A program made the position numbers and the translations under genes. Below are positions 24 through 14,089 of a stretch of 64,000 nt of DNA, piece after piece. The stretch lies in IMG/VR virus record IMGVR_UViG_3300045988_036168. One strand, 5' to 3'. The first letter of the stretch is position 1. Each line of letters opens with the position of its first letter. The notes beneath the pieces were generated by a model, which had not been told where the DNA came from, did not search any database, and was given only the letters and a program-made list of their open reading frames with translations. The DNA is from a virus.

Positions 24-911
24 TCACTTTCCTGCCAGATATTCGGTGGCAAGCATTTCGATCAACTGCCAGCGGTTCTTGCTCGTGATGGCACCGTCCT
101 TCTCGGCCTTCTTGATGGCCTTCGTAATGGTAGCTGCAGACTCCGCAGGGATGGCGTTGCTGCCGAAAATCTTCGTCAGATACGTCCACTCCTCGTCGTC
201 CTTGAAGCCGACCTCGTCCATCTTCTCCGTGACGCTCTCGATCATGGAGTGGATGGCGGCGCCGACGTTGCGGATGTCGGAGAACTTCTGGTAGCGGGCC
301 AGCGCCTCGATGAACTGCTTGCACTGCTCGTAGGGCGCGACACCGATAATCTCAGGTGCCGAGGACTCAAGATTCTTCACCAGCGCATCCATGTCCTTCA
401 CCTGATGCGGCAGGAACGAAAACGTGATGTTCTTGAAGTCGAAATGCACCGCCGGGGACAGCAGCTTATCGTACTGCTCCAGAGGCTCCTCCATGATGTC
501 CTTGCCGATGAAGCTCTCCAGCATATCATCCACGTCGTCGAGCATCTTGCAGATCTCGCGCAGGATGGACGGGTCATCGAAACCGCTGATGGCGTTGTGT
601 GCCAACTGCTTCGATGCGATCTTGGAGCGGGACAGGCCGCTCACGTCGATGATGGCGATAATCTCCTTCATGCCGGCGGCGCGGGCGCTCTTGATGCGGT
701 GGTGGCCGGAGATAATCTCCAGAACGCCGTCTTTCTCCACCAGCAGGGGCAGGCTCTCAAGCTGGCCGCGGTTCTTGATGTTCGCGGTGAGCTGATCCTG
801 CATTTCCTTCCTCATGATGCGGGCGTTGATGTCCTGCTCCCGCACCTTATCAAGCTGGACTTTGGCGATAATCAGGCCGGTGCCCATGTCGTAAATCTTC
901 TCGTAGCTCAT
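24..911 (-). CDS. ParB/sulfiredoxin-like nuclease-domain protein
   Basis: ORF 24..956 trimmed to ATG 911 (ATGA overlap with stop of upstream MTase gene). LEIISGHHRIKSARAAG matches the ParB N-terminal GxxR box. Confidence 0.75.
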   Translation of the reverse strand: MSYEKIYDMGTGLIIAKVQLDKVREQDINARIMRKEMQDQLTANIKNRGQLESLPLLVEKDGVLEIISGHHRIKSARAAGMKEIIAIIDVSGLSRSKIASKQLAHNAISGFDDPSILREICKMLDDVDDMLESFIGKDIMEEPLEQYDKLLSPAVHFDFKNITFSFLPHQVKDMDALVKNLESSAPEIIGVAPYEQCKQFIEALARYQKFSDIRNVGAAIHSMIESVTEKMDEVGFKDDEEWTYLTKIFGSNAIPAESAATITKAIKKAEKDGAITSKNRWQLIEMLATEYLAGK

Positions 912-2302
912 TGCTGTGCTCTCTTCTGCTGCCATTGTTTCTCCCTCCTCAGCCATTCGGCCAACGTAGCCTTCTCGTCACGGCCAGCCACAAGGGCGGC
1001 CTCATAGGTCAGCTTGTACCCGTTCTTCGCGTCCTCCTGCCGGTTGACCAGCTTCATGATGCCGCGAACCTCTTTGTTCTCGGCGTACTTCGTGAGCATG
1101 GCTGTACGCATCTTCGTGACCTTCTCTTGGTCGATGTCGTCGAGCAGCGTGTCCACGAAGCTCTGGTTCTGGGCCAGCATATAGCAGAGACGGCCGAGGC
1201 GGTACAGCTTGTGCGGTGCCTTCATGACGTACCACACAAAGATGGAGTCCGCAGCCATCTTCGAGATGCCGAAGACCGCGGCCACATAGCCGTCGATCAG
1301 GACAGCACGGTTGTAGGTCGCCTGCGAGCCTACGAAGTTGTGCGTCCAGAGCATCCGGTAATACTGCGCGTTGGCGCCGGCGATCTGGATAATTCGGATG
1401 TCGCTGTCCTCTGTGATCTCATAGTCGAGCGGGAGCATACTGCATTTCAGAGGCTCCAGCTTGCCCTCCTGCGGGCGCTTGATTTTCTTCCCTTTGGCAA
1501 GGGCCACGGCTTCCTCTTCCCTGTTCGTCGTGATGTACGAGTTCAGGTCGGCGCGTGTCCCAGAGCGGGCAAAGATGGTGTGGCCGACGGCCTCACCTGC
1601 CCGTTTCTCCTGATAGCACAGGAGCAGAGCGGGAGCGTCCATCATCATGTCATAGAGCTGCTGATGGCCGGTCTCAGGGTCGAACATACCGTAGGGTGGC
1701 TCTTTCCAAGTCATCTTTCCCTGCGTGTCGTAGAACTTCTCATAGCCGGCGAAATACGTCGGCGGATTCGCCACGATGATCGTATGCGGGTCGTCCTTCA
1801 CCTCACGGAGATGATCCCACATATCCAGCGGGCGGTAGCTCATACCACCGAGCAGGCTCTTCGTGGCCTCAAGCTGTCGGCGTATGCTCTCGATGTGCTC
1901 TTCACGCCTGTCGTGCAGGTCGCGCAGGATGTTGTGGAAATACTCGTTCCCTGCGCTCTTCGATGTCCGCAGATAGATTTGCGCGTACAGAGCTACGGCC
2001 GGGTCTAACAGCTCTTCATCGGAGAAGCCCTGCGCGTGGATCTGCAGCGGTTCGAGAGACTGGCCCGTGATGGCGTAGCCCATCACCGAGGTCATCATGT
2101 TCACGTCGCTGGTTTCGATCTGCTCAGGCTTGAACCCCGACTGGACTGCCAGATTCGCCATAGCGAATGTACCGGCGCATGGCTCTACGAACCGCGTGTA
2201 CCCAGAACGCCGAGCGGTCTTAATGAGCTCAATCAAAAACTTCTGCTCAACACCGTTCAGGCACCCGAGGAACATCGCTCCGGGGTCCATAAAAAACGCC
2301 AT
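908..2302 (-). CDS. N6-adenine DNA methyltransferase with about 200-aa C-terminal extension
   Basis: 464-aa ORF. FVEPCAGTFAM (SAM-binding motif I-like) and IVANPPTYFAG (NPPY catalytic motif). AGGAGG RBS upstream of the ATG. Confidence 0.75.
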   Translation of the reverse strand: MAFFMDPGAMFLGCLNGVEQKFLIELIKTARRSGYTRFVEPCAGTFAMANLAVQSGFKPEQIETSDVNMMTSVMGYAITGQSLEPLQIHAQGFSDEELLDPAVALYAQIYLRTSKSAGNEYFHNILRDLHDRREEHIESIRRQLEATKSLLGGMSYRPLDMWDHLREVKDDPHTIIVANPPTYFAGYEKFYDTQGKMTWKEPPYGMFDPETGHQQLYDMMMDAPALLLCYQEKRAGEAVGHTIFARSGTRADLNSYITTNREEEAVALAKGKKIKRPQEGKLEPLKCSMLPLDYEITEDSDIRIIQIAGANAQYYRMLWTHNFVGSQATYNRAVLIDGYVAAVFGISKMAADSIFVWYVMKAPHKLYRLGRLCYMLAQNQSFVDTLLDDIDQEKVTKMRTAMLTKYAENKEVRGIMKLVNRQEDAKNGYKLTYEAALVAGRDEKATLAEWLRREKQWQQKRAQQ

Positions 2303-2384: not shown

Positions 2385-3056
2385 TTACATCTCGTCGATC
2401 AGCTTATCGACGATGTCCAGACAGGTCATCGCTGTCCTGCCCTTCTCATTCCAGTATTCCGCAGCGCCACCCCTAACGCTGTCGGCTACCGTTTTCACCA
2501 TCAGGCACGGAACGTCGTTGCGGTCGCAGGTCAGCAGGATCGCCGCCGCTTCCATATCGCACACATCCGCGCCGAACTCTTTGTTGAGCCAGAGCTTTTC
2601 CTCGGCCTTGCCCATGAACTTATCGCCAGAGGCGCAGCACACATGACGCAGGTTCGGGAACACTCGGCTTGCCATCTCCATAAGCCGTTCATCGGTCTGG
2701 AGCCGCCAGTCTGGGTACTCCATGTATTGACCAACAGGCACACCGTCCACGTCGGATAGGTCGTACTGCCAATGCACCACGCAGTCAACGAGGCAAGGCT
2801 CGTCGGCCATCAGGTCTTCTCTGCAGCCTCCCACTACGCCGTAATTAAGAACCGCAGCGACTTCGTAGCGGTCGATAAGGTATTGTGTTGCGGCGGCCGC
2901 GAAAATCTCACCTGCGCCGCTATACAGGGCGTAGACTTGGCTTTTGGCGGTTTGATAAAGCACTGTGCCGTAGCCGTCGTTCAAATCGTAGCCTTCGCCG
3001 TATTTCTGGCGCATGGCCTCTTCCTCGACCGCTACGATCAGTCCGATCTTCCTCAT
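2385..3056 (-). CDS. mtnN: MTA/SAH nucleosidase-family (PNP/UDP fold) protein
   Basis: ORF 2385..3185 trimmed to ATG 3056 with GGAG RBS. KIGLIVAVEEE, YSGAGE, NYGVVGG, ASGDKF, CDMEAAA and VKTVAD align with the MtnN/Pfs catalytic motifs. Confidence 0.7.
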   Translation of the reverse strand: MRKIGLIVAVEEEAMRQKYGEGYDLNDGYGTVLYQTAKSQVYALYSGAGEIFAAAATQYLIDRYEVAAVLNYGVVGGCREDLMADEPCLVDCVVHWQYDLSDVDGVPVGQYMEYPDWRLQTDERLMEMASRVFPNLRHVCCASGDKFMGKAEEKLWLNKEFGADVCDMEAAAILLTCDRNDVPCLMVKTVADSVRGGAAEYWNEKGRTAMTCLDIVDKLIDEM

Positions 3057-3074
3057 GGAGTCACTCCTCGATGC

Positions 3075-3105
3075 AAGAGAAAAGGCAGCCGGTTCGCCGA
3101 CTGCC
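3075..3105 (-). terminator. Intrinsic terminator closing the tRNA-like array
   Basis: Minus strand GGCAGTCGG-CGAA-CCGGCTGCC (9 bp including one G:U) followed by TTTTCTCTT. Confidence 0.6.
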
Positions 3106-3117
3106 TTTCTCGTATTC

Positions 3118-3191
3118 TGGACCGGGCCCCAGCTTGCGAGGCTGGAACGCCTGCCGGGGAGGCAGGAATGATGCACTTTCACCAAGCCCGG
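3118..3191 (-). ncRNA. Non-canonical tRNA-shaped RNA, unit A (74 nt, loop CUCCCCG, encoded U-CCA)
   Basis: Minus strand folds as CCGGGCT-TG-GTGA-AAGTGCA-TCAT-T-CCTGC-CTCCCCG-GCAGG-CGTT-CCAGC-CTCGCAA-GCTGG-GGCCCGG-T-CCA. This is a full cloverleaf, paralogous to units B and C. Confidence 0.6.
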
Positions 3192-3194
3192 ATA

Positions 3195-3267
3195 TGGACC
3201 GGGAATCCGCTTACGGGGCGGAAACTCTCGACAGGATGCCGAGCGTGATACCTTTCGCTATTCCCGG
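3195..3267 (-). ncRNA. Non-canonical tRNA-shaped RNA, unit B (73 nt, loop CAUCCUG, encoded U-CCA)
   Basis: Minus strand folds as CCGGGAA-TA-GCGA-AAGGTA-TCAC-G-CTCGG-CATCCTG-TCGAG-AGTT-TCCGC-CCCGTAA-GCGGA-TTCCCGG-T-CCA. There is one C:A mismatch in the D stem. Confidence 0.6.
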
Positions 3268-3292
3268 ATGTTGCCCCGATGGTCGGGGCCTA

Positions 3293-3369
3293 TGGCACGG
3301 ACGGTTGGGAATCGAACCCACCACACGCGGTTTTGGAGACCGTGTCGCCACCTTGGGACATTCGCCCGT
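3293..3369 (-). tRNA. tRNA-Trp (anticodon CCA), slightly aberrant
   Basis: Minus strand ACGGGCG..CGGT-CTCCAAA-ACCG..GTGGG-TTCGATT-CCCAAC-CGTCCGT-G-CCA. Has the bacterial Trp-type anticodon loop, A1:U72, G73 and a canonical T loop. Irregularities: a 1-nt bulge in the T stem, an A:C mismatch in the anticodon stem, and an irregular D-arm junction. Confidence 0.65.
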
Positions 3370-3372
3370 ATA

Positions 3373-3446
3373 TGGACCGGAACCCTACTTGCGAGGTAGG
3401 AACTCCCTCAAGGATAGAGGGCGTGATGCTCTTTCACCAGTTCCGG
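3373..3446 (-). ncRNA. Non-canonical tRNA-shaped RNA, unit C (74 nt, loop UAUCCUU, encoded U-CCA)
   Basis: Minus strand folds as CCGGAAC-TG-GTGA-AAGAGCA-TCAC-G-CCCTC-TATCCTT-GAGGG-AGTT-CCTAC-CTCGCAA-GTAGG-GTTCCGG-T-CCA. All four stems are perfect. Confidence 0.65.
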
Positions 3447-3454
3447 GTATCTGA

Positions 3455-3611
3455 TGTGCGGGCGGGGATTTGTCACCCCGCATAGCACAGGCAGCGTACA
3501 ACGTGCTTTCTTCCCGTCCGAGGTAGCTACTTAACCCCAATAGGTCTGCGTTCTGTTGTGCCCTTCTGCGCCGCATACCCTTGCTGCGTCTACCTATTCC
3601 GCCACCGCACA
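3455..3611 (-). ncRNA. 157-nt structured RNA with tRNA-Leu-like 5' D-arm and closing acceptor-like helix
   Basis: Minus strand TGTGCGG-TG-GCGGAATAGGTAGACGC...CGGGG-TGACAAAT-CCCCG-CCGCACA. Has a 7-bp terminal helix, a type-II tRNA-like D-arm, about 100 nt of inserted sequence and no encoded CCA. Confidence 0.35.
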
Positions 3612-3626
3612 TCACCGGCCTGCCGG

Positions 3627-4082
3627 TTACAGCAGGCTCAGTTGCTCAACTTTCTCTTCAGGCGGTTTTGCCGCCTTAGGCTGCTTCAAAGCGTCAGTCT
3701 CAGGCATCTCCTCGATGACCTCGCCGGTGTGGGCCAGCCACCACTCCGCAAACAACGTGCGGTGGCACCAGTTCTCAGGCTTACGGATGTCCTCAAAGCA
3801 GAGCAGAACCAGCTTCTTGTCCTCCTCCTGAGCCTTGGCGTCAAGCCGCTGGACGATGCCGATAATCTTATCGACGCCGATCTTATCCAGCTTCTTGAAA
3901 TACTCGGCCTTGTACTCCTCATAGCCCAGCTTCAGCATATCGTACCGCGGAGCCAGCGCGTAGCACTGTTCACGGATCTCGTACCCAGTTGAAAATCTGG
4001 GCTTGCCGACGCTGATGCCGACGGGATAATACCCATCGTTTCGGAGTTCCTTGTTGCTATACCGACCTGTCATAATTGCCAT
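3627..4082 (-). CDS. DUF488 (YeaO-like) family protein
   Basis: 151 aa. The LLCFED...CHR motif and overall pattern are typical of DUF488. AGGAGG RBS. Confidence 0.65.
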   Translation of the reverse strand: MAIMTGRYSNKELRNDGYYPVGISVGKPRFSTGYEIREQCYALAPRYDMLKLGYEEYKAEYFKKLDKIGVDKIIGIVQRLDAKAQEEDKKLVLLCFEDIRKPENWCHRTLFAEWWLAHTGEVIEEMPETDALKQPKAAKPPEEKVEQLSLL

Positions 4083-4368: not shown

Positions 4369-5538
4369 TTACTTGATGGCTTCGAGCAGCTTCTCCGCGG
4401 TGTCCGTCTGCTCCCAAGTACGCTCCTCGCCGATGACGTTGCCGAAGTGTCCGTAGGCGGAAGTGTTCTTGTAGACGGGCTTGCGAAGGTCAAGCCAGTT
4501 GATAATGCCTCTGGGGGTCAGATCATAGACGGCCTCGACGGCGTCGCAGATCTTATCCTCGGCGTACTTGCCGGTGCCGTAGGTATCGACTCGGATGCTC
4601 ACGGGCTGCGGTACACCGATTGCATAGGCGAGCTGGACCTGACACTTATCAGCGATTCCGGCAGCCACGATGTTCTTTGCGATGTGGCGGGCTGCATACG
4701 CTGCAGAGCGGTCAACCTTGGTGGGGTCTTTACCAGAGAAGGCGCCACCACCGTGCGCGGCATAGCCGCCGTAGGTGTCAACGATGATCTTACGTCCGGT
4801 GAGGCCCGAGTCCGCGGCAGGGCCACCCTTGACAAATCGGCCCGTGGGATTGATGAACAGGCTGTAAGTGACCACGTCCATATCAGGCCGATAGGTCAGC
4901 AGTTCGTCGAGGACAGGCTTGATGACGTGTTTCTGCAGGGGTTCGATCAGATCCTCCGGGGCAACACATTCCTCATGCTGGGTAGAGATGACGACGGTGT
5001 CAACCCGTACCGGGTTGCCCCCCTCGTCATACTCCACCGTTACCTGTGTCTTGCCATCGGGGAGGATGTGAGGGATCGTGCCATCCTTTCTCTTCTTCAT
5101 CAGCAGGTATGCCATCTTATTCGCCAGCGTGATAGGCAGGGGCATCAGATCCGGTGTCTCGTTACAGGCGTAGCCGAACATCATTCCCTGATCCCCCGCT
5201 CCGCCGACTCCATCGTTGGTTCCCATTGCGATGTCGGGACTCTGCTCGTCGATAGCTACCATCACCGCGCAGGTGTTGCCGTCAAATCCCGCCTTGGGGC
5301 TGTCATAGCCGATGTCCTTCAGGACGCCGCGGGCGATACCGGCAAAGTCGATGTAGTGCTCCGTGCTGATCTCGCCCATGACCAGCACCATGCCGGTCGT
5401 GCAGCAGGTCTCGCAGGCCACACGGCCATTCGGGTCATGCTTCATGACCTCGTCGAGCACTGCGTCAGAGATGCGGTCGCACACTTTATCGGGATGGCCT
5501 TCCGTGACCGATTCCGAAGTGAAGAGTATCTTGCTCAT
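4369..5538 (-). CDS. metK: S-adenosylmethionine synthetase
   Basis: 389 aa. [36 protein letters not shown] and [19 protein letters not shown] are hallmark MetK motifs. AAGGAGG RBS. Confidence 0.97.
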
Positions 5539-11678: not shown

Positions 11679-12851
11679 TTATGACGATGCTTTGAAGTTG
11701 TAGATGGGCCTGATAATCTCCAGCACGTCGCAGGTCGGGCCGATGCAGCCCATGATCTCCTTCGTGTCCTTGTAGGCGAACGGCGCCTCGTCTATGGTGT
11801 CGTAGCTGATACAGGAGCTATGCACGTTCCGCATCGTCTCTCGGTAGGCTCCGAGAGAAATAGACTCTCGGGCTTTGCTGCGGGACATCAGGCGGCCAGC
11901 TCCATGCGGTGCCGACTGGTTCCAATCGTCGTTGCCCTTGCCGACGCAGATCAGAGAACCGTCGCGCATATTCATCGGAATAATCAGGCGCTCGCCCTTC
12001 TTAGCAGACACAGCACCTTTCCGCAGGATCATGCTCTCGTGGTCAATGTAGTTGTGCACGGTCGTAAACTGCTCCTGCGGGACGATGTGCATAGCTTTCA
12101 GGATGGCCTTTGCGATGGCCTGACGGTTGGCCTCCGCATAACGCTGGATGATCTCCATGTCGTTCAGGTAATCGTCCATCAGTTCGCCGGTCAGGTACGC
12201 GAGGTCGGGTGCCCCGAAGTCGCTGTGCTGTTTTCTCAGTTCTTCCAGCGCACCGGCGATTTCCTTCTGCCGGCCAGCAGCCTTGTACTCGGTGACAACA
12301 CGGCTGATTTCCTCACTGGTGGGCTTTGTCATGGCCTCCATCGCTCTGCGCTGGTGCCAGTTCGCCACCTCAAGGCCGAGCTTTCGGCTGCCGGTGTGGA
12401 TCACCAGCCAGAGGCCGCCGCTCTTATCCTTGTCAACCTCGATGAAGTGATTGCCACCGCCGAGCGTCCCGATGCTGAGGAGCGCACGGCTGTTGTCGAT
12501 GCCGACGCATTTCAGGCCGCTCAGGTCGAACCACTCCTTCGGGTAGTTGTGAGTACAGAAACCGGCCGGCACATTCCAGCGGATGGCCTTGTCCAGCTCG
12601 TCAAGGTCGAGCCTCACCCGCCCCAGCTTGACGGCCAGCATACCGCAGCCGATGTCCACGCCCACGAGGTTCGGGCAGACGCGGTCGTGAATGGTCATCG
12701 TCGTTCCGATAGTACACCCAGCGCCGGCGTGAACGTCGGGCATGATCCGTACCTTGGAGCCGTCACTCACGGGATGGCGGGACAGCTTCTCAATCTGCTC
12801 CGTCGCTTCCTGCTCGATGGTCTTCGCAAAAATCTTCACATCATTGGTCAT
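11679..12851 (-). CDS. rtcB: RtcB-family RNA ligase (3'-phosphate/5'-hydroxyl)
   Basis: 390 aa. MPDVHAGAGCTIG, GVDIGCGM, GGGNHFIE, HTGSRKLG and NQSAPHGAGR match the RtcB metal/GMP-binding motifs. Confidence 0.9.
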   Translation of the reverse strand: MTNDVKIFAKTIEQEATEQIEKLSRHPVSDGSKVRIMPDVHAGAGCTIGTTMTIHDRVCPNLVGVDIGCGMLAVKLGRVRLDLDELDKAIRWNVPAGFCTHNYPKEWFDLSGLKCVGIDNSRALLSIGTLGGGNHFIEVDKDKSGGLWLVIHTGSRKLGLEVANWHQRRAMEAMTKPTSEEISRVVTEYKAAGRQKEIAGALEELRKQHSDFGAPDLAYLTGELMDDYLNDMEIIQRYAEANRQAIAKAILKAMHIVPQEQFTTVHNYIDHESMILRKGAVSAKKGERLIIPMNMRDGSLICVGKGNDDWNQSAPHGAGRLMSRSKARESISLGAYRETMRNVHSSCISYDTIDEAPFAYKDTKEIMGCIGPTCDVLEIIRPIYNFKASS

Positions 12852-12863
12852 CGTCTTTTCCTT

Positions 12864-13637
12864 TCACTCGCTCCACGGAAACTCTGTGATAATGTCGTCA
12901 CCCCAAATGGGCTTCATACTGTCTTTCATGAACACCGGCTTCCCGGTCGAGCGAGCGTATTCGACAACAGCCTCGATCCACTCGCGTTTCGGAGTGACTT
13001 TGCCTTTCCGGTTTCCTGTTTCAGCTCCGAGTATGAACCAGTCGATGTTCTTCATCTCGTCAGCTACAATCTTTCCGTCGAACGAGCCGAGAACCGGCTC
13101 CATGCTCGCAAAGGTGTGGTGCCGATCAGACCAGAACATCGGCATTTCGTCATCGGTCGCCGTAGATCCGTACCAGTAATCATCCCCCTCCGGCAGCAAG
13201 CCAGCTTTGTAGAGGTCGATGTACCGCTGCGGGTTCTTTGTGAGGAACAGGTATCTGTGTCCGGGAGCTTCCTTGCAGGCGTCGAACACCTTCTTGATCC
13301 ACTCGTCAGGCACCCAGTCCCCGAACAGGTCGGCCATCGAACAAACGAAAATGGTCTTTCCAAGCCCCTTCGTCAACGGGTCGTTGAGGCGGTACTCGTG
13401 GAACGTCGGCGTAAAGCCGAAGGGGTAGGCCGCGTTTCTGGTGACACCGTCCTTGCTGGTGACGGTCAGGCGTTCCTTCAGGTACACCACGTTCTCGTCA
13501 GTCTCTCCACCGGCCGCACAGTCGCAGCCTTTGAAGCGGTTCGCGGTCGATCTGGCATAGCAATACGGACAGGAATGATAGCAGCCGCTCACGGGATTCC
13601 ATGTGCTGTCGCACCACTCGATCTTACTCTTTTCCAT
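12864..13637 (-). CDS. Phage Gp37/Gp68 (DUF5131) family protein with CX3CX2C cluster
   Basis: N-terminus KIEWCDSTWNPVSGCYHSCPYCYA is characteristic of this family. Confidence 0.75.
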   Translation of the reverse strand: MEKSKIEWCDSTWNPVSGCYHSCPYCYARSTANRFKGCDCAAGGETDENVVYLKERLTVTSKDGVTRNAAYPFGFTPTFHEYRLNDPLTKGLGKTIFVCSMADLFGDWVPDEWIKKVFDACKEAPGHRYLFLTKNPQRYIDLYKAGLLPEGDDYWYGSTATDDEMPMFWSDRHHTFASMEPVLGSFDGKIVADEMKNIDWFILGAETGNRKGKVTPKREWIEAVVEYARSTGKPVFMKDSMKPIWGDDIITEFPWSE

Positions 13638-13651
13638 TCGATGCTCTCCTA

Positions 13652-14089
13652 TCAGAACGGGAGTTCGCCGGCGTCATCATCGGCAATCTCCGAAAAATCT
13701 CCGCTTGGCTGCTGGTAGCCGTTGTCGTAACCGCCGCCATAGCCGCCGCCAGACCGATTGCCGCCGTCCTTGTTGCTGTCCCCGAAATAGACATTGTCAG
13801 CCACAACCTCCGCGCTGCGGCGGTTATTGCCCTCCTTGTCCTTCCAGTCGCGGATCTGGAGCCGGCCTTCCACGACGGCCATGCGCCCCTTCGTGAAATA
13901 CTTGCTCACGAACTCGGCGGTGTTTCTCCACGCGACCACGTCGATGAAGTCCGTTTCTTTCTCGCCGCCCTGCCCCTTGAAGTCGCGGTCAACGGCCAGC
14001 GCAAACGAGGTCACGGCCGTCCCGCTTCCGGTGCGCCGCAGTTCGGGGTCACGGGTCAATCTGCCCATCAAGATTATCTTGTTCAGCAT
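13652..14089 (-). CDS. ssb: Single-stranded DNA-binding protein
   Basis: MLNKIILMGRLTRDPELR OB-fold start, glycine-rich tail and acidic DDDAGELPF C-terminus. Confidence 0.92.
   Translation of the reverse strand: MLNKIILMGRLTRDPELRRTGSGTAVTSFALAVDRDFKGQGGEKETDFIDVVAWRNTAEFVSKYFTKGRMAVVEGRLQIRDWKDKEGNNRRSAEVVADNVYFGDSNKDGGNRSGGGYGGGYDNGYQQPSGDFSEIADDDAGELPF

Follow-up and report, generated by a model that had tools for sequence, protein, structure and literature searches.

Phage Mu Mom, a GNAT enzyme, moves glycine from Gly-tRNAGly to the N6 position of adenine in double-stranded DNA, which results in N6-carbamoylmethylation; the part of the tRNA that it reads appears to be the 3' acceptor end (PMC13219725). 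DNA modification that depends on a tRNA has been shown only recently, and for this one enzyme, which borrows host tRNAGly. In Staphylococcus aureus, non-proteogenic tRNAGly species of the UCC type (NP1-3), whose T loop is altered and whose binding to EF-Tu is weak, serve FemXAB (PMC7826273). Here we describe a locus with likenesses to both systems in a 64,000-nucleotide stretch of viral DNA (IMG/VR record IMGVR_UViG_3300045988_036168), hereafter called the window, in which positions 3,118 to 3,446 encode on the minus strand an array of three tRNA-shaped RNAs of glycine type, units C, B and A, upstream of a gene for an enzyme with a Dam-like and a GNAT-fold domain. The reading that we favour, at a probability of roughly 55%, is that the units act as dedicated, non-decoding glycyl donors for DNA hypermodification by this enzyme; the structure of the RNAs, their pattern of conservation and their linkage to the gene are observations, from which we infer all of the mechanistic steps.

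Like Mom, which is late-expressed and anti-restriction, the window enzyme is a phage protein with a GNAT fold in which a Gly-type tRNA is implicated, and its GNAT-fold domain has no canonical acetyl-CoA P-loop motif. Unlike Mom, it carries a fused Dam-like domain and is encoded in a setting of genes for DUF488-like and ParB-like proteins; furthermore, Mom scavenges host tRNAGly, accepting all isoacceptors, whereas the window phage brings its own, seemingly non-decoding, tRNA, and other clades of the enzyme family carry tRNAs of Lys, Arg or Pro type. With the staphylococcal species the window RNAs share a UCC anticodon, an altered T loop (no UUC/Ψ55) and a poor fit to EF-Tu and the ribosome, which for the window is predicted from sequence, as well as a GNAT-fold aminoacyl transferase working outside translation (Fem in the one case, as proposed for the window enzyme in the other). 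The staphylococcal tRNAs, however, are chromosomal and bacterial, do not adjoin their transferase and serve a peptidoglycan precursor as acceptor, whereas the window RNAs are phage-encoded, syntenic with the enzyme gene and marked by C1:G72, with DNA as the presumed acceptor. A GNAT-type fold that takes the aminoacyl group from a charged tRNA is also found in L/F-transferase, ATE1, MprF and PacB, among which different amino acids are used (Leu/Phe, Arg, Lys/Ala). To our knowledge, none of these proteins comes with a dedicated tRNA encoded alongside it, or with a methylase-like domain that binds DNA, and the window enzyme gave no sequence match or specific fold match to GNAT aminoacyl-tRNA transferases. 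Phage tRNAs that counter tRNA-targeting defences, such as those of T5, have altered anticodon arms too, but they are functional in translation and not tied to one enzyme gene, whereas the window family includes members that would be unable to decode.

The three units are as follows.
3373..3446, minus strand: unit C (read 3446->3373), tRNA-Gly-like cloverleaf with anticodon loop UAUCCUU (A33, UCC, U37); acceptor end C1:G72-C2:G71-G3:C70-G4:C69, U73 and encoded CCA
3195..3267, minus strand: unit B, tRNA-Gly-like cloverleaf with anticodon loop CAUCCUG (A33, UCC, U37)
3118..3191, minus strand: unit A, tRNA-Gly-like cloverleaf with anticodon loop CUCCCCG (U33, CCC, C37)
All are 73-74 nt long and have an NCC anticodon and an encoded U73-CCA, the acceptor end and CCA of units A and B being identical to those of unit C. 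The original prediction, made from the DNA letters alone, had proposed these three minus-strand cloverleaves, and both coordinates and sequences turned out to be exactly right, as were the G:U pairs that it named and the TAT spacers between adjacent genes of the array. RNAalifold on the three copies returned a 7/4/6(5)/5-bp cloverleaf of 22 pairs, 10 of them changed on both sides, in line with the compensatory changes that had been claimed. Single-sequence folding energies were only modestly better than those of shuffles (z -1.8 to -2.5) and the plus strand folded about equally well, which is why we checked the structure on homologues; the strand call and the structure thus rest chiefly on the homologues, together with the encoded CCA and the G:U pairs. 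A covariance model made from units A, B and C, which we call R1, matched unit C with 97.3, unit A with 93.8 and unit B with 91.8 bits (E about 1e-19) and, apart from these, found nothing better than E=3 in the 64-kb window. ARAGORN called only a tRNA-Trp (3293-3369) and none of units A-C, and Rfam yielded 0 matches at gathering score and none for units A-C even at E<=10; as had been anticipated, the units are neither ordinary tRNA-Gly calls nor members of an Rfam family. A BLAST comparison of the region and 20 kb of the window with cultured phages brought up fragments of tRNA-Trp and RtcB and no close relative. The possibility that the units are attachment-site (attP) copies of a host tRNA was rejected because of the presence of whole cloverleaves with compensatory changes, and also because of their being tandem paralogues that adjoin terminase rather than integrase genes.

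In an alignment of 41 distinct Gly-type homologues, which was fitted to R1 and so favours structure, but which agrees with the RNAalifold result for units A-C and with an independent finder (see below), the helices are kept: 99.9% of cells were paired and 14 of 21 pairs carried double changes, compared to 28-45% paired in slid-partner controls, and the observed values were reached in 0/500 shuffles. Positions 1-4 and 69-73, CCA, U8, positions 10-12 (the 5' strand of the D stem), A14, C35 and C36 are invariant in all 41. This includes five of the six elements of the identity set of bacterial glycyl-tRNA synthetase (GlyRS), namely U73, C2:G71, G3:C70, C35 and C36, so that the Gly-type determinants first noted in the three units hold throughout; the sixth, the 1:72 pair, is C:G and not G:C. 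U33, by comparison, is present in 29/41, a purine at position 37 in 19/41 and the D-loop GG in 6/36, and T loops are short or non-canonical. Within the window, units B and C have A33 and U37, unit A has C37, and the T loop reads CYCGYAA without T54-Ψ55/A58, bearing out the poor fit to decoding (U33/R37, G18G19 and TΨC elements) that had been predicted. Aminoacyl-tRNA synthetases and readers of the acceptor end use the parts that are kept, and the ribosome needs those that are lost, a pattern that fits charging and acceptor-end recognition rather than decoding. Features expected to disfavour EF-Tu and the ribosome thus seem to coexist with retained synthetase determinants, as in the staphylococcal non-proteogenic tRNAs.

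Judged by their sequences, the units are a divergent lineage of tRNA-Gly, and canonical bacterial tRNA-Gly (RF00005) is clearly their evolutionary origin: cloverleaf geometry, U8, A14, C35, C36, U73, C2:G71 and G3:C70 are common to both, while the units differ in C1:G72, in the loss of U33, R37, G18G19 and T54-Ψ55/A58 in the window copies and in falling below every detection threshold. Their initial description as an undescribed class of RNA accordingly holds with respect to Rfam, where they have no match, but not with respect to this lineage, since several homologues are called tRNA-Gly(UCC) by ARAGORN and some have a U33-UCC-A37 loop and a UUCAUCG T loop. Such homologues, together with Arg-type members of the family that have canonical D and T loops, are what one would expect if the RNAs were ordinary phage tRNAs supplementing host decoding of Gly (or Arg, Lys, Pro) codons. 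We nevertheless regard this as extremely improbable, in view of A33 or C37, the missing TΨC and the lack of an ARAGORN or Rfam call in the window units, the 6-nt anticodon loops and C33 within the family, the invariance of C1:G72 across identities, the strict synteny, and the occurrence of three copies with near-identical anticodons beside a single other tRNA. A further suggestion of the original prediction, that C-rich loops pair with ribosome-binding sites, is not supported either, as nothing in the loop but C35 and C36 is fixed, its flanking positions being free to vary.

The enzyme encoded downstream offered a lead to be tested, because GNAT-fold enzymes include aminoacyl-tRNA-dependent transferases and Mom is among the GNAT enzymes that use Gly-tRNAGly. 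It belongs to a group of three genes around the array.
908..2302, minus strand: proposed partner enzyme, 464 aa, with an N-terminal Dam-like Rossmann domain (PF22555) and a C-terminal GNAT-fold domain (PF22559)
3627..4082, minus strand: DUF488-N3a-like gene, directly upstream of the array; the tRNA co-occurs with it in 165/177 distinct loci
24..956, minus strand: ParB N-terminal-domain-like gene, directly downstream of the enzyme gene; conserved member of the module
Related loci were gathered with single proteins and a 12-sequence alignment. In the forward direction, R1 matched 101 RNAs in 74 IMG/VR loci collected via the enzyme (73-100% enzyme identity), and all 101 lie on the strand of the enzyme gene, 75-1200 nt upstream of it. 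In the reverse direction, a DNA pattern of the RNA alone (CCGG…UGGUG.AA…CCGGUCCA) matched 92 places in IMG/VR, 87 of which are in contigs of the window's phage group, with the enzyme gene adjacent in about 79; the other 8 of the 87 are short stretches cut at the RNA, with only DUF488-like or accessory genes in range, and the 5 places without module context fail R1, about five chance matches being expected. An independent cloverleaf finder of our own (<=2 mismatches), used in place of the relaxed and mitochondrial modes of ARAGORN, whose calls were inconsistent and overlapping, was applied to the 450 nt upstream of the enzyme genes and detected a cloverleaf in 177/217 regions, compared to 0/217 reverse complements and 0/217 intragenic controls. 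Most of the regions missed at >=79% enzyme identity come from window-like loci, in which an inserted gene pushes the array past 450 nt; with 1300 nt of upstream DNA, a tRNA on the same strand as the enzyme gene was found in 170 of 177 distinct contexts (about 96%). The DUF488-like gene and the tRNA are both present in 165 contexts and both absent in 3. The linkage also holds at 27-60% enzyme identity, where the type of tRNA has changed. Non-ribosomal aminoacyl carriers had been among the functions first suggested for the units, and the linkage favours this idea, although the original prediction left it uncommitted and missed the Dam-like/GNAT enzyme 800 nt downstream.

The two domains of the enzyme are recognized with E 2.7e-73 (PF22555, named 'phage DNA adenine methylase-like domain 1' in Pfam) and E 1.4e-30 (PF22559, 'phage GNAT-like domain'), and the family comprises 789 clusters at 50% identity, keeping its two-domain architecture down to ~28% identity. 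With an AlphaFold2 model of the full enzyme (pLDDT, the predicted local distance difference test score, of 86), Foldseek assigned a GNAT fold to the C-terminal domain through many generic acetyltransferases (E about 1e-4), and returned no match specific to Fem, Mom or L/F-transferase. The acetyl-CoA motif Q/RxxGxG/A is replaced by R-L-x-R-L in the GNAT domain, as read from the alignment. In the Dam-like domain, motif I is of the FxGxG type with an invariant G44, motif II has D66 in at least 90% of the family, and this region aligns to motifs I/II of glycine N-methyltransferase (E 0.004); a canonical motif IV, (D/N/S)PP(Y/F/W), is absent, the window having NPPTY and the family keeping P-[TS]-Y only (CMPTY, GLPTY, WCPTY). 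The enzyme sequence had no match in the PDB, neither the enzyme nor the DUF488-like protein is named in NCBIfam, and one enzyme homologue is labelled 'putative antirestriction adenine methyltransferase' in UniRef. Our literature searches, the coverage of which did not extend to Burroughs & Aravind 2023, returned only papers on Mom and none linking the PF22555/PF22559 families to tRNA.

For a model of the DUF488-like protein (pLDDT 85), Foldseek found nothing below E 0.1 in the PDB and a weak resemblance to Cys-phosphatases. DUF488 relatives have reportedly been placed with the rhodanese-phosphatases (by Burroughs and Aravind), and the resemblance seen in the model would fit this placement. Ribose-linked phosphates and RNA ends have been proposed as the targets of the superfamily, which is of phosphatase type (PMC9503650). 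Conceivably, the enzyme or the DUF488-like protein binds the tRNA in a capacity other than that of an aminoacyl donor to DNA, be it as a substrate to be methylated or acylated, as a scaffold or guide, or as a donor to a non-DNA acceptor, for example a protein or a DNA end. The linkage between tRNA and enzyme applies here in the same way, the DUF488-like gene and the tRNA are gained and lost together, and there are GNAT toxins, TacT among them, whose target is Gly-tRNAGly itself (PMC13219725). Three features, however, point to DNA, namely the Dam-like domain, the neighbouring ParB-like gene and the proximity of terminase genes, and the discriminator base shifts with the anticodon according to the rules of aminoacyl-tRNA synthetases, which argues that charging matters; on balance we consider this alternative unlikely.

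The type of tRNA follows the enzyme clade. Gly-like tRNAs (NCC, U73, encoded CCA) go with enzyme identities of >=73% and Lys-like ones (CUU, A73) with ~58%, the latter including the cultured Faecalibacterium phage FP_Brigit and an Anaerovibrio prophage, in which ARAGORN missed the tRNA. In FP_Brigit (NC_047909.1, ~13917-13993; L288:2762-2838), ARAGORN calls a tRNA-Lys(CUU) between gp20 and gp21 that is absent from the RefSeq annotation. Arg-like tRNAs (UCG, GCG, ACG, CCG, UCU) occur at 27-45% enzyme identity in gut phages, Microbacterium phage ValentiniPuff and Streptomyces-group prophages, and Pro-like ones (CGG/AGG, A73) in a few Clostridia prophages. The Lys- and Arg-type tRNAs lie beyond the reach of R1. 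The Arg-type RNAs have canonical D and T loops, but C33 in 22/26, and 6-nt anticodon loops are found in ValentiniPuff, locus L216 and Streptomyces prophages, which ARAGORN reports as 'tRNA-???'. A CCG start combined with a CGG end (C1:G72, C2:G71, G3:C70) is present in nearly all of these RNAs, with 35/36 among the Gly-type and 25/26 among the Arg-type ones. This signature is not general to the tRNAs of these phages, because a tRNA-Gly(GCC) in L268 (~2720-2795; same contig as L052), which lies ~60 nt upstream of a CCG-type Gly-like RNA, has the canonical G1:C72; the window tRNA-Trp, with A1:U72, likewise lacks it. The discriminator obeys identity rules, U73 going with Gly and A73 with Lys and Pro, and its change with the anticodon, as predicted by these rules, again suggests that charging matters. 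Residue 402 of the enzyme, in the GNAT domain, is M in 13/14 Gly-type, Q in 4/4 Lys-type and E in 8/8 Arg-type loci, and M or V in Pro-type ones, at a position that is highly variable across the family; this tracking is suggestive of side-chain recognition, and the residue may determine specificity. Lys-, Arg- or Pro-like partner tRNAs in other clades would imply different amino acids on DNA. Tentatively, and at somewhat less than even odds, we propose that the enzyme family uses private, decoding-disabled, CCG-marked tRNAs to attach Gly, Lys, Arg or Pro to phage DNA, depending on the clade.

As a separate observation, 20 of 26 distinct Arg-type tRNAs (e.g. L161:3898-3974) end 3-5 nt ahead of the ATG of the enzyme gene, so that their G-rich 3' acceptor strand sits at the expected ribosome-binding site; in these loci, maturation of the tRNA and translation of the enzyme from one transcript may be mutually exclusive.

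The variety of tRNA types also bears on the proposal, already part of the original prediction, that the RNAs counter host defence, as decoys or nuclease-resistant mimics of those host tRNAs that anticodon nucleases and tRNA-acetylating toxins attack. Lys, Arg and Gly classes are known targets of anticodon nucleases or GNAT toxins (for TacT, PMC13219725); altered anticodon loops could resist cleavage, and RtcB is encoded in the window. RtcB, however, is found in 7/39 related loci only, compared to 39/39 for the DUF488-like and ParB-like genes, and we rejected it as a functional partner on these grounds. Decoys would give no reason for a lock to one enzyme gene or for an acceptor end that is invariant across four identities; the flanks of the anticodon, which nucleases read, are the least conserved part, and tRNAs with 6-nt loops cannot rescue translation. 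We therefore think a decoy role quite unlikely. The original interpretation of the units as genuine, covarying, non-canonical tRNA-shaped RNAs stands; the partner enzyme had been overlooked, and pairing with ribosome-binding sites found no support.

In the donor reading that we favour, the DUF488-like gene, the array and probably the enzyme gene would be transcribed from the minus strand late in infection, beside the packaging genes, and RNase P together with 3' trimming would free RNAs of ~74 nt ending in the encoded U73-CCA. Host GlyRS would charge these via the strictly conserved C35, C36, U73, C2:G71 and G3:C70. With U33, R37, G18G19 and the TΨC loop lost, the units would stay off EF-Tu and the ribosome and thereby form a private pool of donors that leaves translation undrained. 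The GNAT-fold domain of the enzyme would then take the aminoacyl group, recognizing the tRNA by the clade-independent C1:G72-C2:G71-G3:C70, while the Dam-like domain would bind DNA and present the base, most likely adenine N6. The aminoacylated base, possibly after a rearrangement as in Mu momylation, would shield phage DNA from host nucleases, with the DUF488-like (rhodanese-phosphatase-type) and ParB-like proteins as conserved accessory factors. If this is true, there is at least one further, much larger phage enzyme family for tRNA-dependent DNA modification, which has carrier tRNAs of its own that change their amino-acid identity between clades, and new DNA chemistries would be predicted, for example lysyl-, arginyl- or prolyl-derived adducts. 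A class of phage tRNAs that are unannotated or taken for 'pseudo' ones would likewise be accounted for, and there would be natural tRNAs that host synthetases charge but that are kept out of translation, a property of interest to synthetic biology. The module is carried by the cultured phages FP_Brigit and ValentiniPuff and by prophages of cultured Gemmiger, Blautia and Streptomyces strains. Metagenome-assembled genomes of Oscillospiraceae contain close relatives of the window's module, a Gly-type one is found in Gemmiger formicilis, and the host of FP_Brigit is Faecalibacterium prausnitzii; the host of the window phage is therefore probably an Oscillospiraceae bacterium.

Several points weigh against the donor reading. 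G1:C72 is a determinant of E. coli GlyRS, and the C1:G72 of the units might impair charging by GlyRS. The identity of the amino acid is deduced from anticodon and discriminator only, and U73 is atypical for tRNA-Arg. BLASTP and hhalign detected no sequence relationship between the enzyme and Mu Mom (PF25680), to whose family it does not belong, and the GNAT fold, whose matches are generic acetyltransferases only, does not itself point to a tRNA as the donor. The enzyme could simply be a methyltransferase dependent on S-adenosylmethionine (SAM), since SAM-type motifs I/II are kept and genes for MetK and a methylthioadenosine/S-adenosylhomocysteine (MTA/SAH) nucleosidase are nearby. The correlation at residue 402 is confounded by phylogeny, and a small number of related phage clades supply most of the loci, so that the counts given above are of non-independent events. 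Finally, enzyme homologues in L331-L333, L282 and L199 have neither an upstream tRNA nor a DUF488-like gene. These five loci are candidate natural 'knock-outs', which may use host tRNA or work differently.

The remaining features of the region and two genes further along the window are listed below.
4369..5538, minus strand: S-adenosylmethionine synthetase (MetK), upstream of the module; accessory, in 10/39 related loci and also in FP_Brigit
3452..3612, minus strand: fourth RNA of ~160 nt, between the DUF488-like gene and unit C; tRNA-like ends with a large insert
3293..3369, minus strand: tRNA-Trp(CCA) (read 3369->3293), between units C and B; A1:U72, G73, canonical anticodon loop, A8 in place of U8
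3273..3289, minus strand: short G+C hairpin GCCCCG/CGGGGC between tRNA-Trp and unit B; -13.6 kcal/mol, z -3.1
3072..3111, minus strand: intrinsic-terminator-like hairpin with U-tract, closing the array after unit A; -24.5 kcal/mol, z -4.8
2385..3056, minus strand: MTA/SAH-nucleosidase-like gene (PNP_UDP_1), inserted between array and enzyme gene; accessory, in 10/39 related loci
11679-12851, minus strand: RtcB; accessory, in 7/39 related loci
12864-13637, minus strand: DUF5131/radical-SAM-like protein encoded by the window phage
All genes neighbouring the array are on the minus strand, and the order in the direction of transcription is MetK, DUF488-N3a-like gene, ~160-nt RNA, array (C, Trp, B, A), terminator, nucleosidase-like gene, enzyme gene and ParB-N-like gene. 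The conserved module consists of the DUF488-like gene, the tRNA, the enzyme gene and the ParB-like gene, followed by terminase, and in complete loci it stands directly ahead of the terminase genes. The DUF488-like and ParB-like genes are present in every one of the 39 related loci having 10-kb flanks, whereas the MTA/SAH nucleosidase, MetK and RtcB are accessory to the module and not part of its core. In a minimal locus, the DUF488-like gene is followed after ~10 nt by one tRNA-like RNA, a terminator hairpin, the enzyme gene and the ParB-like gene; the window is an expanded version of this arrangement. Folding confirmed both the GCCCCG/CGGGGC hairpin and the terminator after unit A that had been predicted, and minimal loci (L021, L058) have a hairpin equivalent to the latter after their single tRNA; a generic terminator scan did not list the hairpin and U-tract after unit A.

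This layout, with the tRNA always between the two open reading frames, would also be compatible with cloverleaves that serve mainly in processing or regulation, as RNase P/Z 'punctuation' splitting the DUF488 and enzyme messages or as a gate on enzyme translation. The 3' strand of the Arg-type tRNA, 3-5 nt before the ATG, does occupy the ribosome-binding region, and a terminator follows the tRNA in Gly- and Lys-type loci. As the main function this seems very improbable, however, for it leaves the invariant C35/C36, the discriminator, the encoded CCA and the CCG/CGG signature unexplained, as well as the three tandem copies; a role in processing may be additional to that of a donor rather than an alternative to it.

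All parts of the array listed in the original prediction were found, but the fourth RNA at 3452-3612 had gone unnoticed. The tRNA-Trp(CCA), which had been described as nearly canonical, is called as such by ARAGORN, yet it is slightly atypical, with A8 and, as its best match in the Rfam clan, tRNA-Sec at 36.5 bits, under the gathering score; it is found only in the closest relatives of the window (L001, L014, L019). The fourth RNA has an 8-bp closing helix, a D arm of Leu/Tyr type (GCGGAAUAGGUAGACGC) and a T-arm-like hairpin, with an insert of ~100 nt in place of the anticodon and variable arms, and it has no match in Rfam. In its homologues in L014 and L015 the ends are kept, with two compensatory pairs in the T-like hairpin, while the inserts differ and are longer. 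Upstream of the fourth RNA, these two phages have a conserved non-coding element of ~110 nt (L014:8490-8600, L015:7390-7500), which the window lacks and which carries …GACGCCUACGUGCCAACGC…GAGUAGCGGCGG…CUGAAAACUGCGC…GUGUGACAAUCUAAGCGG. Also upstream of the array in L015 lies an odd tRNA with an oversized anticodon arm (L015:7311-7391), which ARAGORN calls 'Ser(aga)' with the anticodon at position 37 and to which the Rfam tRNA model gives 44 bits, 24 nt standing in place of the expected 18.

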